A DNA stretch of 64,000 bases from the IMG/VR virus record IMGVR_UViG_3300045988_154477; one strand, given 5' to 3'. Below, in pieces: positions 5,052 to 6,598 of the stretch; the stretch's first letter is position 1, and each line of letters opens with the position of its first letter. The stretch comes from a virus (Duplodnaviria; Heunggongvirae; Uroviricota; Caudoviricetes). A program made the translations under genes and the position numbers. The notes beneath the pieces were generated by a model. The model saw only the letters and a program-made list of their open reading frames with translations, ran no database searches and was not told the DNA's origin.

Positions 5052-5517
5052 TCAGGGTTTTCGTCATGGTTAGCGACTTTGCGGCGGTTTAGAAACTGAC
5101 CATTAAAGTAAATGCAAACGATGATCTGATGATGGTAGCGGCCTAAGAAGCCAGATGCCACGGGGTATGAGTCGTCCCCCGTCAAAAAATCGACCGCAGA
5201 GTGTCCCCGTCTGTGTATTAGGGAACGGGGAGGCACAACAGGTAAGGGCGCTGGTGTGATTAACCAGATGAACGAGAAGGGGCCATCTGTTGGCCAGCGT
5301 CCTTTCCTGTTGCGTTTTCTTTTCAGCGTAACAGCGGTGCTTAACAGCACTTTGGGTACAGTTCCACGAATTTACGGGTATATCCCGTCATGCTGAAAGC
5401 GCTAATCACGCTGGAAGCCAGGGTTGTGCATCCCCTGTTACCGAATTGCAGCCAGGGCGCGGTGCGCCGAAAAGCATACGGAGGTGGAAGCCCTCGCCGG
5501 AGACGTACCCGGCAAGT

Positions 5518-5593
5518 GATGGTGTAGCTCAGCGGTTAGAGCGGTTGACTGTTAATCAACGGGTCGATGGTTCAAATCCATCCACCATCGCCA
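5518..5593 (+). tRNA. tRNA-Asn (anticodon GTT)
   Basis: 76-nt cloverleaf folded by hand: acceptor GATGGTG/CACCATC, D-arm GCTC-AGCGGTTA-GAGC, anticodon loop CTGTTAA, T-arm GATGG-TTCAAAT-CCATC, 3' GCCA. Confidence 0.85.
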
Positions 5594-5595
5594 AT

Positions 5596-5671
5596 GCCGG
5601 TTTAGCTCAGTTGGTAGAGCGCCTGCCTTGTAAGCAGGATGTCAGCGGTTCGAGTCCGTTAATCGGCACCA
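5596..5671 (+). tRNA. tRNA-Thr (anticodon TGT)
   Basis: 76-nt cloverleaf: acceptor GCCGGTT/AATCGGC, anticodon loop CTTGTAA, T-loop TTCGAGT, 3' ACCA; 2 nt after tRNA-Asn. Confidence 0.85.
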
Positions 5672-6598
5672 GCACAACAGGTAAGGGTATTTTGCGACGT
5701 CGGAGATCGCCGAGCTTGGCAGAGGGTTCGAATCCCTACGAAGTACCCTTACCGTTGTGATGAATGCGCAGGCTGATGCGCGAAAGACATTGCAGCTATT
5801 GCGGAAAAGAGCTGTTCGGCGGGGCAATTAAACGCCCGTGAGAGTCTGAAATAACCGCAAGCCGGAGATCAGCACCGGTCATCACAACACAACAGGTAAG
5901 GGCATTCTCCCTTATGGGGCTTGGCTTAAATGCATCGAGTGCTCTTACCGTTGTGATGAAGTGCAGCTCTTTGAAGCAACCAGAAGATAAGCATCTGGCT
6001 TCACAACATAAACCGCAGGAACGACCAATAAACGGTAGTCCGTATGGAGAACACCCCGTTGAGGAAGAGGCCTGGCCGGAACCGTAACCGGCACTACAAC
6101 GTTGAGAACACTGGCGTAACGGGGTCATATCCCAATCTACGAATAAATGTTGCGTTGCAGCGTGACAACCAGTGTTCTCAACATTGTGGTGAATGCACAG
6201 GCTGATGTGCCGCAACTACAGTAGTGCGCGCTTTGCGGGGCTTGCTACAACCCTGTGTCGGAGTTCAGCACCGACCATCACAGTTTGATTCTCTGGCATG
6301 AGCATAACGCTGAAATAAGTCCAGTCTGGTGCGGCCCGATCACCCGCCGTTAGCTCCACGAAACGGAGCACGTAACAGGTAAGAGCATTCTCCTGTAACG
6401 GGTTCATATCCCAATCTACAGGTCCACCAGGAATGCTCTTTCCGTTGCGGTGAATGCGGCTAAGCGCACGCGGGGAAATGGTTATATCTGTCCATTATTT
6501 CTCCTTATTTCCCCGTCCATGGTGGATAACCAGCCAAAGGACACCGGGAAGCACCCGGCACCGCAACCTTATTTCCCAACCAGTAATGAGGTTAATAA

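Follow-up and report, generated by a model that had tools for sequence, protein, structure and literature searches.

A tandem array of long hairpins and STnc100-like three-helix RNA elements in the ban leader of a P1-like phage-plasmid

Two module types form the array

The repeats surrounding the tRNA-Asn/tRNA-Thr pair are real. They make up a tandem array with two conserved types of folded-RNA module, in which long hairpins (H, n = 5) alternate with STnc100-like three-helix elements (S, n = 4). The array lies at 5230-6570 on the + strand of the 64-kb stretch of DNA analysed here (the window), which is a P1-like phage-plasmid, and is found inside the untranslated leader of the ban operon, which C1 represses; tRNA-Asn, tRNA-Thr and tRNA-Ile share this leader. 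Along the transcript the order is a dicF-like RNA, a tmRNA-like message block, H1, tRNA-Asn and tRNA-Thr, H2-S2-H3-S3-Y-H4-S4-Z-H5-S5, tciABC, tRNA-Ile and ban, where Y and Z are spacer modules. Although few phages have been studied as thoroughly as P1, about 1.5 kb of its ban leader, previously annotated only with two doubtful minus-strand ORFs, is a stretch of conserved covarying modules common to lambdoid, P22-like and Ackermannviridae phages.

All sequences described in the first-pass annotation were present at 5230-6470, but its repeat unit, a single hairpin, turned out to be a composite of the two modules H and S. The CTTACCGTTGTG-ATGAATGC motif and the small hairpin that it had placed in this unit belong to S, which is closed by a strand 60-125 nt downstream and is related to STnc100. 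We agree that no convincing protein ORF covers the repeats. The P1 GenBank record has two minus-strand ORFs here, plp and upl; no Pfam family matches these ORFs, their lengths are unequal in P1 and JL22, and PGAP annotates nothing over the repeats in more than 1000 E. coli genomes, plasmids included.

The P1 annotation has the promoter Pban with its operator Op72 upstream of the array and ban beyond it, all in the same orientation, and the dicF-like segment heads the ban leader. The sole + strand terminator found in 4700-7800 is the dicF-like one, and no sigma-70 consensus promoter was found in the same interval. As this terminator separates Pban from the array, read-through or an unrecognised promoter is needed. 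CRISPRi knock-down of the array region gave no plaque phenotype (PMC10695390), hence any function of the array should be conditional.

The tRNA-Asn(GUU) at 5518-5593 and tRNA-Thr(UGU) at 5596-5671, both on the + strand, were called by ARAGORN and score 74.5 and 72.9 bits with Rfam; they are genuine tRNAs filling one cassette slot of the array. The covariance-model search suggested in the first-pass annotation recovered the real tRNAs and a sub-threshold STnc100 match at S5. Neither ARAGORN nor the Rfam tRNA model calls a tRNA in the repeats, in line with the reported lack of a canonical cloverleaf, and with RF00005 membership defined by ARAGORN or an Rfam score of at least 29 bits only three tRNAs, all real, are called.

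The H hairpins

Each H is a hairpin of 20-30 bp with conserved arms and interchangeable apical payloads. Folded as RNA, the five H reach -33 to -49 kcal/mol, and relative to dinucleotide shuffles their z-scores are -4.7 to -7.3. The + strand folds better than the - strand in all five (for H1, -49.0 versus -36.3), and 2-7 G.U pairs are found in each. The stems had been given as 10-16 bp, which underestimates them, as the predicted pairs total 25-37. At least five units with shared motifs had also been proposed; the five hairpins stand, but H1 is not followed by TGAATGC and the arms of H4 differ. A repeat finder recovered the H families as D2, D4, D5 and D7 along with the inverted repeats I1, I7 and I11.

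H1 (5233-5315, +; -49.4 kcal/mol, z -5.5; D5) lies directly 3' of the message module and has no S element after it. Its basal helix is CACAAC (5234-5239)/GTTGCG (5309-5314), its conserved 5' arm is ACAACAGGTAAGGG, and its payload is without a T arm. The order of message block followed by H is also seen in Ackermannviridae-type contigs. H2 (5673-5759, +; z -4.7) has a tRNA-like apex. H3 (5888-5955, +; z -4.75; D4 and D5) carries the payload CCCTTATGGGGCTTGGCTTAAATGCA, which is kept in the unrelated contigs L109, L163 and L023. The 23-nt arms of H4 (6092-6191, +; -49.2 kcal/mol, z -7.3; I1 and D7) are 91% complementary, and their sequence (CAACGTTGAGAACACTGG/CCAGTGTTCTCAACATTG) is unlike that of the other H while the architecture is alike; the payload includes GTAACGGGGTCATATCCCAATCTAC. 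H5 (6371-6448, +; z -5.0; D4, D7 and I11) has a payload related to that of H4 and a basal helix, CGTAAC/GTTGCG, that is compensatory relative to CACAAC/GTTGTG.

The H arms fall into many sequence classes in which pairing is kept, and they always continue into the P1 helix of an S. The final 6-9 nt of each H 3' arm double as the 5' strand of P1 in the next S, so full H pairing and S closure are mutually exclusive. With RNAfold, H pairing into the S 5' strand was predicted in 86% versus 66% in a tail-shuffled control, a control that discriminates poorly.

Two spacer modules separate S and H on the + strand. Spacer Y (6008-6091) ends in a P3-like hairpin, GCCGG-AACCGTAA-CCGGC (6075-6092), which abuts the 5' arm of H4 and has homologues, GCCGGATAAACGTAACCGGC and GCTGGATAAACGTAACCAGC, sitting directly 5' of H arms in other contigs. 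Spacer Z (6285-6370) ends in the hairpin GCTCCA-CGAAA-CGGAGC (6353-6369) just 5' of H5, and covarying copies of it (GCCACA-CGAAA-CGTGGC) precede H in other contigs. Some relatives have tRNA-Ser(tga) in place of Z and H5.

The tRNA-like payload of H2

T-arm-like cores had been reported in several hairpins and regarded as what unifies them. Only GGGTTCGAATCCC in H2 (5724-5736) is a true T-arm consensus; GGGGTCATATCCC in H4 and GGGTTCATATCCC in H5 lack the equivalent of A58 and so are not T loops. The T-arm-like sequence is thus confined to one of several interchangeable payloads.

H2 is the only H hairpin with a genuine tRNA-like payload, a 58-nt segment (5688-5745) with a perfect T arm (GAGGG-UUCGAAU-CCCUA), a 7-bp acceptor-like stem (UAUUUUG/CGAAGUA) and a D-arm-like part (GCGA-CGUCGGAGA-UCGC); the anticodon arm is absent. 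A regular-expression search of the collected loci showed that the payload is kept in six different arm contexts, from P1-like phages, Uetakevirus BUCT554 and IMG/VR contigs, and the 3 bp flanking it covary (UUG/CGA, GCG/CGC, GAG/CUC and GGG/CCC). The payload has U3.G70 and not G3.U70, carries no CCA, and is not called as a tRNA by ARAGORN or the Rfam tRNA model. We also considered whether H stems flank real tRNA genes, and rejected this, as no H encloses an ARAGORN tRNA in about 130 loci.

The S elements

S is a three-helix scaffold with a closing helix P1, two hairpins P2 and P3 whose loops pair with each other, and a variable insert between them. For this analysis we defined a covariance model of the S element (R1) with a seed taken from unrelated viral contigs. 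Over both strands of the window R1 finds four S sites only, all on the + strand, and only S5 and S3 among them are independent tests because the seed holds close relatives of S2 and S4. The family is defined by the helices P1, P2 and P3, the motif GUGAAUGC, the loops GGCUGA and AGAUCAGCA, and a significant R1 score, and these four sites count as its members.

S2 (5754-5888, +; R1 83.9 bits, E 6e-21) has P1 formed by GTTGTGATG (5754-5762) and CATCACAAC (5880-5888), P2 at 5766-5781 with loop GGCTGA, the insert at 5782-5860 and P3 at 5861-5879 with loop AGATCAGCA. S4 (6183-6284, +; R1 73.1 bits, E 5e-18) has P1 ATTGTGGTG/CATCACAGT, P2 at 6195-6210 and P3 at 6257-6275 (GTCGG-AGTTCAGCA-CCGAC), and compared with S2 both P2 and P3 differ by compensatory changes. 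S3 (5950-6007, +; D2 and D3) is a truncated and degenerate S in which P2 has decayed and the insert is absent, with P1 GTTGTGA..AAG/CTTCACAAC and P3 CCAGA-AGATAAGCA-TCTGG; its R1 match (17.5 bits, E 0.007) is partly shifted in register into H3. S5 (6443-6567, +; R1 34.7 bits, E 1.6e-7; fold z -4.0), an S of the STnc100 type, has P1 GTTGCGGTG/CACCGCAAC and P3 CCGGG-AAGCA-CCCGG.

The compensatory change noted earlier in the small hairpin is real. P2 reads GCGCA/GGCTGA/TGCGC in S2 and GCACA/GGCTGA/TGTGC in S4, and such changes recur in viral contigs (GCGAA/TTCGC, GCGTA/TACGC, GCCCG/CGGGC and GCTAA/TTAGC). In 70 distinct viral S copies 94.7% of cells are paired versus 86% after shuffling, a level reached in 0 of 500 shuffles, and 26-50% in slid controls. 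Double changes are seen in 13 of 24 pairs, spread across P1, P2 and P3. The contact between loops L2 and L3 also covaries, with GGCCGA accompanied by UCGGC at four loci of differing P1 and insert sequences and GGUUGA by UCAAC at one locus; three GGAUGA loop variants are uncompensated. As judged by sequence covariation, S is shown to be a real RNA family, and the proposed selection on RNA structure is borne out by covariation together with strand asymmetry, for the + strand.

By analogy, the topology of S may be likened to that of tRNA, with acceptor-, D- and T-like helices and an elbow-like loop contact. That S mimics a tRNA ending in CCA was discarded, since CCA follows P1 in only 17% of the copies.

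Relation to STnc100, PasD and other phage RNAs

The STnc100 model (RF02076) detects S5 at 39.2 bits (E 1.4e-6), short of the gathering threshold of 47 bits, and gave no match to S2, S3 or S4 at E up to 10; the controls 933W and T751 scored 207.7 and 48.8 bits. In the cmscan alignment S5 covers model positions 31-147 with all three helices kept and the 5' hairpin after GGUGAAU. Conversely, the best R1 match in 933W lies inside the canonical STnc100, where R1 aligns to the core, while R1 gave no match at E <0.01 on the bona fide STnc100 of T751. S5 and the STnc100 family detect each other weakly, which makes S and the prophage sRNAs STnc100 and PasD sisters. With R1, a large family that takes in these two unexplained sRNAs of Shiga-toxin and other prophages is defined structurally and can be searched for, and H is identified as a second, undescribed partner element.

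The likeness to STnc100 extends to a closing helix that begins ...UGGUGAAU, with one hairpin following at once and a final one next to the closing 3' strand, and also to the setting, a non-coding stretch of a long operon transcript near tRNAs in a phage or prophage; in 933W STnc100 lies 75 nt past stxB2. STnc100 and PasD, which associate with Hfq and are encoded by prophages of Salmonella and pathogenic E. coli, have been detected in vivo as sRNAs (bioRxiv 10.64898/2026.05.13.724894; PMC12370729). In contrast to both, S has the loops GGCUGA/AGAUCAGCA, its copies are in tandem and coupled to H, and S2-S4 are without a terminator of their own.

Two further comparisons may be drawn with RNAs from phage operons. 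DicF of the Qin prophage (dicB operon) is likewise an sRNA processed out of a long leader, in an early operon under repressor control, but it is one short antisense RNA, structurally unlike S or H. The T4 species 1 and 2 RNAs (rnaC, rnaD) are stable non-tRNA RNAs in a phage tRNA cluster. The present modules would resemble them in being small structured RNAs that are transcribed along with phage tRNAs and mature through tRNA-processing enzymes; the T4 RNAs differ in being single genes, whereas the array here is shuffled and has spacer hairpins.

Proposed processing of the array

The reading we prefer, held with about even confidence, is that the array serves as a polycistronic ncRNA precursor from which stable small RNAs mature. 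The array, tRNAs included, would be transcribed as a single precursor. A double-strand-specific endonuclease (RNase III) would then cut the long H duplexes, and RNase P and the 3' processing enzymes would cut the tRNAs and the tRNA-like payload. Cutting would free the shared strand and let each S close P1 and survive as a small RNA, compact and resistant to nucleases, with the variable insert available for base-pairing or protein binding, while S5, the last S, would stay on the tciABC mRNA and cap its 5' end with structure. Points against this reading are the missing terminators of S2-S4, the dicF-like terminator ahead of the array, the CRISPRi result and the uncompensated GGAUGA variants.

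RNase III hairpins are known from the R sites of T7, from the N leader of lambda and from the stems at which rRNA is processed. H resembles these as an imperfect duplex of 20-30 bp with conserved bulges, placed between the units of a long untranslated transcript, and its 25-37 predicted pairs fit an RNase III substrate of about 20 bp or more. It differs from them in that unrelated phages share the sequence of the arms, the payloads are conserved, and the 3' arm overlaps the next P1.

We consider it possible, at a rather low probability, that S and H instead act in cis as leader elements, which would protect the long transcript and the mRNAs after it by stabilising the 5' end, tuning translation of the next ORF or insulating against Rho or termination. 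The RNase III-sensitive lambda N leader and rrn-type antitermination are comparators for such a role. The 3' end of S5 is 31 nt upstream of the tciA start codon (6599), and 20 of 102 distinct S copies (~20%) have a Shine-Dalgarno sequence and an ORF within 90 nt downstream; one of the genes after S encodes an N_peptide family protein (35.7 bits), and others are Arg-rich N-like ORFs. The copies with a nearby Shine-Dalgarno sequence and ATG lie 20-75 nt upstream of it, and with N-like antiterminator genes among those that follow, this favours a cis leader role for at least some copies. In mEp460 and Stx2 phages H+S is placed just after cI, in the pL leader. Against a cis role for the family, 56 of the 102 copies are followed by neither ORF nor terminator and lie inside RNA-only islands, and the genes that do follow (TerB, ParB_N, Endonuclease VII, DUF6321 and N-like) are mutually unrelated, for which reason a gene-specific riboswitch was rejected. 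S is upstream of N-like genes in at least two contigs, where S is invariant and the Arg-rich motifs of N differ, which argues against an N-specific boxB. The dominant H arm class holds the boxA-resembling UGCUCUUU/UGCUCUUA, but the motif is buried in the helix and no more than 5 of the 80 arm classes have it, and a general NusB/E site in the H 3' arm was dismissed on this count. The antiterminator RNA put of HK022 is a two-stem element of about 70 nt (PMC9378689).

The tmRNA-like message module

Immediately upstream of the array, just outside its coordinates, we found an apparently unreported tmRNA-like message module (5056-5232, +; Rfam tmRNA_permuted 26.1 bits, E 0.006). Its parts are a pseudoknot-like leader, an ORF, a stop-codon hairpin, a downstream pseudoknot and a terminal hairpin abutting H1. 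The resume-type ORF, GCA..TAA (5114-5146), encodes ANDDLMMVAA, so the block has the resume codon, hydrophobic ..AA-type tag and stop of a tmRNA tag. The module is present in 293 phage records. Among 27 nucleotide variants of the tag ORF every one has 10 codons and a stop, the substitutions are of coding type, and the last Ala codon is seen as all four GCN. The pseudoknot after the ORF covaries (CCGA:UCGG, CCAG:CUGG and CCAA:UUGG). No paper was found on ANDDLMMVAA-type tag peptides, nor one giving a name to the P1 elements.

Several temperate phages depend on trans-translation. It is conceivable, though unlikely, that the array and the message block together constitute a disguised or split tmRNA-like system that reprograms or blocks host trans-translation. 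The ssrA-like tag template would then come from the message block, and the minihelices on H would provide or imitate the tRNA-like domain. The constant length and coding-type substitutions of the tag ORF and the covarying pseudoknot point in this direction, as do the tmRNA_permuted matches (39 bits in L136), which have significant E-values and are below the gathering threshold. A payload of the H2 type also adjoins the message block, in the H directly before it (L141) or after it (L236, L047). A likeness to tmRNA (RF00023, RF04321) is thus seen in the resume context, the 10-codon ssrA-like tag and the flanking pseudoknots, but tag and tRNA-like parts sit separate, and the alanine acceptor stem (G3.U70) and CCA end of a tmRNA-like domain were not found, the payload having U3.G70. 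ARAGORN calls no tmRNA across about 240 loci, and an excised minihelix would not remain paired to the message block. The apparent D-loop similarity of GUUUUCGUC, 5' of the message block, is also lost, as this sequence pairs with GGCGAAAUC at the base of the upstream H. We also rejected a circularly permuted tmRNA in which the H apex is the intervening sequence, since the presumptive 3' strand of the acceptor has no T arm ahead of it. A CDS-less mini-tmRNA of mycobacteriophage DS6A inhibits host tmRNA (PMC11915505); the H2 payload is comparable as a tRNA-like domain without an anticodon arm.

One may also speculate that P1 and many enterobacterial phages carry a portable 'translation-mimic' RNA island, an idea we regard as improbable. 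Such an island would be composed of a message module that has no tRNA-like domain and encodes a 10-residue ssrA-like tag (ANDDLMMVAA in P1), tRNA-like minihelices devoid of an anticodon arm and carried on H, and tRNA-shaped S with a closing helix and two hairpins whose loops kiss. If true, SmpB, tmRNA, ribosomes or tRNA-processing enzymes would be the targets of the processed RNAs, and host trans-translation would be reprogrammed or blocked while the phage develops. The tag module raises the testable question of interference with trans-translation by temperate phages.

Distribution and shuffling of the modules

Lambdoid, Uetakevirus and Ackermannviridae phages carry the modules too, and their covarying conservation spans phage families otherwise sharing little. 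The 135-nt S2 cassette has ~98% identical copies in lambdoid and Stx2 phages, downstream of cI, and is found in 1060 of 5426 complete E. coli genomes (~20%); it is absent from P1 proper. The 36 P1-like loci examined resolve into 24 module orders with breakpoints at the H/S junctions. The repeated arms and termini would serve as recombination joints by which cassettes are swapped between phages.

It is very improbable that the repeats act as DNA, as recombination sites or attC- or MITE-like boundaries solely swapping cassettes. The many module orders, the near-identity of S2 between P1-like and lambdoid phages, and H ends of the form ...AAC / GTT..., each with a bulged base around a variable centre, are consistent with such a role. 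The ends, GCACAAC ... GTTGTGA or GTTGCGG, do not fit the attC consensus RYYYAAC/GTTRRRY, however, and no integron-type integrase accompanies the modules in P1-like, lambdoid, Uetakevirus or Ackermannviridae hosts; no common recombinase was seen in the inspected loci from these four unrelated phage groups. With their G.U pairs the structures are strand-specific, an indication of RNA, the covarying loop-loop contact has no rationale in DNA, and homologous recombination between the repeats explains the shuffling.

That the repeats are decayed tRNA genes or junk that recurrent insertion and deletion left behind, or the coding regions plp/upl, is hardly tenable, for although H2 has its T arm and acceptor-like stem, P1 GenBank annotates the two ORFs and real tRNAs replace some modules in relatives, the covarying conservation between distant phage families, the lack of any H stem around a real tRNA, the differing lengths and missing Pfam families of the minus-strand ORFs, and the failure of PGAP to call plp/upl in E. 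coli plasmids all speak against it.

The array exposes a cassette-like exchange of tRNAs and small RNAs among phages. The cassettes are tightly packed, with zero spacer at the tRNA borders; the first base of H2 comes directly after the CCA end of tRNA-Thr. In relatives the Asn/Thr slot is filled by Arg(tct), Tyr(gta) and Thr instead.

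Genomic setting of the repeats

The window is a P1-like phage-plasmid. Leaving out an indel of ~200 bp, its 4800-7400 stretch has 99.6% identity with phage JL22 and 99.4% with phage P1. In the P1 record this stretch starts with the C1-controlled promoter/operator Pban/Op72 at the dmt end, followed by a 'dicF-like region', tRNA-Asn, tRNA-Thr, tciA, tciB, tciC, tRNA-Ile and ban, all on the + strand. The repeats themselves carry only two annotations there, the hypothetical minus-strand ORFs plp and upl, which are annotated in JL22 as well. Both (5796-6215 and 6216-6407 of the window, - strand) run antisense to the covarying RNA structures. 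Neither ORF matches a Pfam family, their lengths in P1 are not those in JL22, and the NCBI pipeline (PGAP) leaves them uncalled in E. coli plasmids; on this basis both are probably spurious, in line with the first-pass annotation, which had seen no convincing protein ORF over the repeats. Nor had it seen a canonical cloverleaf in them, and at curated thresholds ARAGORN and Rfam call three tRNAs and nothing further. CRISPRi of trnT, plp, upl, tciABC, trnI and ban gave no plaque defect (PMC10695390).

A consensus scan of 4700-7800 gave no strong internal promoter and a single + strand terminator, the strong intrinsic terminator (5022-5052) of the dicF-like segment (4960-5052). As it lies between Pban and the remaining leader, transcription of the tRNAs, the array and ban must either pass this terminator or start at an unrecognised promoter. 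The non-coding stretch between tRNA-Ile and ban (7375-7660; e.g. CAGGTAGCCGGAATGTGCAAG at 7468-7488) holds a conserved block in common with the mEp460 pL leader (L003 ~2340-2365) and a non-coding gap of BUCT554 (L006 ~2405-2425), and this block is another shared RNA module.

Two module types in the array

The repeats are confirmed, and their organisation goes beyond what was first seen. The array consists of two module types, not one: long imperfect hairpins (H) with conserved arms and swappable apical payloads, and three-helix elements (S). The five hairpins with shared arm motifs are present as H1 (5233-5315), H2 (5673-5759), H3 (5888-5955), H4 (6092-6191) and H5 (6371-6448), all on the + strand, with folding z-scores of -4.7 to -7.3. 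Because each contains 2-7 G.U pairs, the + strand folds beat those of the - strand by 5-13 kcal/mol.

The motif '...CCGTTGTG-(A/G)TGAATGC' with the small hairpin behind it does not form the tail of the hairpin unit: GTTGTGATG (5754-5762) pairs perfectly with CATCACAAC (5880-5888) and thereby closes S2, a 135-nt element. From 5' to 3', S2 is built of the closing helix P1, the junction AAU, hairpin P2 (GCGCA-GGCUGA-UGCGC), a variable insert and hairpin P3 (GCCGG-AGAUCAGCA-CCGGU), which adjoins the 3' strand of helix P1. P2 is the previously noted GGCTGA hairpin, and its compensatory stem changes were found as described. S4 (6183-6284) and S5 (6443-6567), both on the + strand, repeat the plan with compensatory changes in each of the three helices, and S3 (5950-6007) repeats it in truncated form, giving the order H2-S2-H3-S3-Y-H4-S4-Z-H5-S5, where Y and Z are spacer modules. 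H1 lies apart, further upstream and behind a different cassette.

Where S follows H, the final 6-9 nt of the H 3' arm double as the 5' strand of helix P1, and the H 5' arm starts with almost the sequence of the P1 3' strand (CACAAC ... GUUGUG ... CACAAC). Since H and P1 have this strand in common, full H pairing and S closure compete. The same X-X'-X layout is kept in other sequence classes from viral contigs (CUAUCA ... UGAUGG ... CUAUCA and CUAUCAC ... GUGAUGG ... CACCAUCA).

Some smaller elements were also observed. A hairpin at 6353-6369 keeps its CGAAA loop while its stem covaries (GCUCCA/CGGAGC vs GCCACA/CGUGGC), and it stands directly 5' of H in several unrelated contigs (L096, L009, L014 and L184). 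P3-like hairpins (GCCGG...CCGGC) at 5496-5513 and 6075-6092 terminate the spacer modules X and Y and adjoin tRNA-Asn and H4, respectively; their homologues (GCCGGAUAAACGUAACCGGC) stand before H arms in Ackermannviridae-type loci, and they may be S remnants or a second S type. A 16-nt direct repeat of 94% identity joins the S2 insert (5780-5795, GCGAAAGACATTGCAG) with the tciA coding sequence (6728-6743, GCGAAAGAAATTGCAG); the copies are on the same strand and hence not antisense.

Arms and payloads of the H hairpins

The main-class H arms, ACAGGUAAG(A/G)GCAUUG / CAGUGCUCUU(U/A)CCGU with a bulged A and a U.U or U-A position, are near-invariant across P1-like phages, the lambdoids mEp460 and Stx2 phages, Uetakevirus BUCT554 and Ackermannviridae. 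Ahead of S elements we found ~80 other arm classes which retain the pairing with different sequences, and H hairpins flanking the tmRNA-like block have the basal helix GGCGAAAUC/GUUUUCGUC or AACUAUC/GAUAGUU. The apices are 30-170 nt long and sort into recurring types: a 58-nt tRNA-like minihelix (H2 type), which occurs in six arm contexts and is flanked by three covarying base pairs, the H3 type (..AUGGGGCUUGGCUUAAAUGCA..), and the H4/H5 type (..ACGGGNUCAUAUCCCAAUCUAC.., direct-repeat family D7), which has a relative in mEp460. The T-arm-like strings reported earlier are indeed in the sequence. No H was found to enclose a real tRNA.

Covariation and relatives of the S family

An exact-pattern scan detected the S P2 motif in at least 120 IMG/VR contigs, and distant BLAST with H2-S2 matched 117 records of Klebsiella, Escherichia, Salmonella, Enterobacter, Erwinia and Cronobacter phages. 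In 70 distinct S copies pairing holds in 94.7% of the cells. Shuffles give 86% (0/500 reach 94.7%), and sliding the partners lowers the figure to 26-50%; double changes affect 6/9 pairs of P1, 3/5 of P2 and 4/5 of P3. Loops 2 and 3 are complementary as well (GCUGA:UCAGC), and two further scans were aimed at loop-2 variants. GGCCGA is matched by UCGGC in loop 3 in 4/4 loci differing in P1 and insert sequences; GGUUGA has the partner UCAAC in one locus and retains a G.U pair in another, and three GGAUGA variants are without compensation.

A covariance model of S (R1) was built from 44 viral copies. It should be noted that the seed includes close relatives of S2 and S4, so that S5 and S3 are the independent tests. 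R1 matched the 64-kb window four times only, all on the + strand: S2 (5752-5890, 83.9 bits), S4 (6181-6286, 73.1 bits), S5 (6442-6569, 34.7 bits) and S3 (5909-6009, 17.5 bits). S5 also matches the Rfam family STnc100 with the same three helices (39.2 bits, E 1.4e-6, below the gathering score of 47), while the STnc100 model gives no match to S2 or S4. Conversely, R1 does not detect the true STnc100 of phage T751 at E below 0.01. In the phage 933W locus, by contrast, the best R1 match (17.5 bits, E 1e-3) falls inside the canonical STnc100 (207.7 bits, 75 nt past stxB2). We conclude that S is a sister family of STnc100, with S5 as an intermediate form. Part of the finding belongs to a known kind of prophage sRNA: Hfq-based methods, Northern blots and RT-qPCR have all picked up STnc100 and its structural relative PasD (bioRxiv 10.64898/2026.05.13.724894; PMC12370729).

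Distribution and module shuffling

The H+S2 pair of mEp460 and Stx2 phages sits in the leader behind the cI gene and its terminator, followed by terminator-like hairpins and the first early-left ORF. In BUCT554 the modules occupy a non-coding gap among structural genes. Those of Klebsiella Taipeivirus T751 belong to a 3.3-kb unannotated island ending at tRNA-Met (L007 1472-4809), where H and S are accompanied by the message block, by a full STnc100 (48.8 bits) and by two tRNA-like elements without anticodon arm. T751 is a virulent Ackermannviridae phage, and its tRNA-like elements lie at 2137-2205 and ~3085-3180, the latter with a tmRNA-like 3' end (..GGGUUCGACUCCCUAAAACGGCUCCA). S2 is found in 1060/5426 complete E. 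coli genomes, at 719 chromosomal and 478 plasmid places, which among the matches listed are without annotation.

Mapping the modules onto 36 P1-like IMG/VR loci revealed 24 different orders, with breakpoints at H/S junctions, in agreement with the tciABC neighbourhood being one of eight hypervariable regions reported in P1-like phage-plasmids (PMC9603915). Presence of S2-H3 varies, and its absence from P1 explains the ~200 bp indel. We also detected tRNA-Ser(tga) in place of Z-H5, tRNA-Arg(tct) in place of tRNA-Asn, a tRNA-Tyr insertion, and joints of H4 to S2 or S5 and of tRNA-Thr straight to H5; the tRNAs adjoin S or H without spacer.

Possible processing of the array

The + strand array in the operon leader consists of independently conserved, covarying RNA structures tightly packed with tRNAs. 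We suggest that it may be a polycistronic precursor, in which the 20-30-bp H duplexes would be candidate endonuclease (RNase III-type) sites, and the tRNAs and tRNA-like payload would recruit RNase P and 3' processing. Cleavage would free the strand shared with H, and S could then close P1 and persist as a compact small RNA, in parallel to STnc100 and PasD, with the variable insert as its presumed functional part; S5 might stay on the tciABC mRNA and form its structured 5' end.

As the main alternative, the modules could act in cis only, through stabilisation, translation control or Rho protection of the long untranslated transcript. This is favoured by the S copies that stand before ORFs, N-like genes included, and disfavoured by the majority, which sit within RNA-only islands. 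Among 102 distinct copies, an SD and ORF comes within 90 nt behind 20, an intrinsic terminator behind 28, and neither behind 56. The downstream ORFs are mutually unrelated, and include an N_peptide antiterminator (35.7 bits), other Arg-rich N-like proteins, ParB_N, Endonuclease VII, DUF6321 and, in the window, TerB (tciA). In the IMG/VR contigs L117, L064, L032, L120 and L073 a small Arg-rich ORF begins 25-30 nt after S; one of these is the Pfam N_peptide match just named and another is sub-threshold at 24.1 bits. A perfect rrn-type boxA (UGCUCUUUAACAA) precedes S by ~65 nt in L032. The strand-specific G.U pairs, the covarying loop-loop contact and the conservation across unrelated phages make it unlikely that the repeats act at the DNA level or are junk.

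The selection on RNA structure proposed at first sight is borne out by covarying helices and loops and by the strand-specific G.U pairs. As far as our tools and literature searches show, the GGCUGA-type S family and its predicted kissing-loop architecture, the H partner hairpins with swappable payloads and the tandem shuffled organisation in P1 are undescribed.

The adjacent tmRNA-like message block

Between the dicF-like terminator and H1 lies a message block (5056-5232, + strand) conserved in 293 phage records, with Ackermannviridae, N4-like (Gamaleyavirus) and Cronobacter phages among them. Its matches to Rfam tmRNA_permuted are sub-threshold but significant (26 bits in the window, 39 bits in L136). 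For the block we found no tRNA-like domain carrying G3.U70 and CCA, and ARAGORN called no tmRNA in any of its loci. A resume-type ORF at 5114-5146 (GCA AAC GAT GAT CTG ATG ATG GTA GCG GCC TAA) encodes the tag ANDDLMMVAA; other tags include ANDDVVLMAA, ANEEMYLAVA, ANDEQFLAVA and ANDNTFLAVA, and these strings occur in no searchable paper. The frame has 10 codons and a stop in 27/27 nucleotide variants, among which an alternative frame varies in length. Variation peaks at the third codon position, with all four GCN codons used for the last Ala, and judged by sequence it is of the coding type. The pseudoknot after the ORF covaries (CCGA:UCGG, CCAG:CUGG, CCAA:UUGG). The H3-type payload contains UUAAAUGCA (5924-5932), near to the message-block sequence GUAAAUGCA (5108-5116) just before and at the resume codon, a resemblance which may be coincidence or mimicry.
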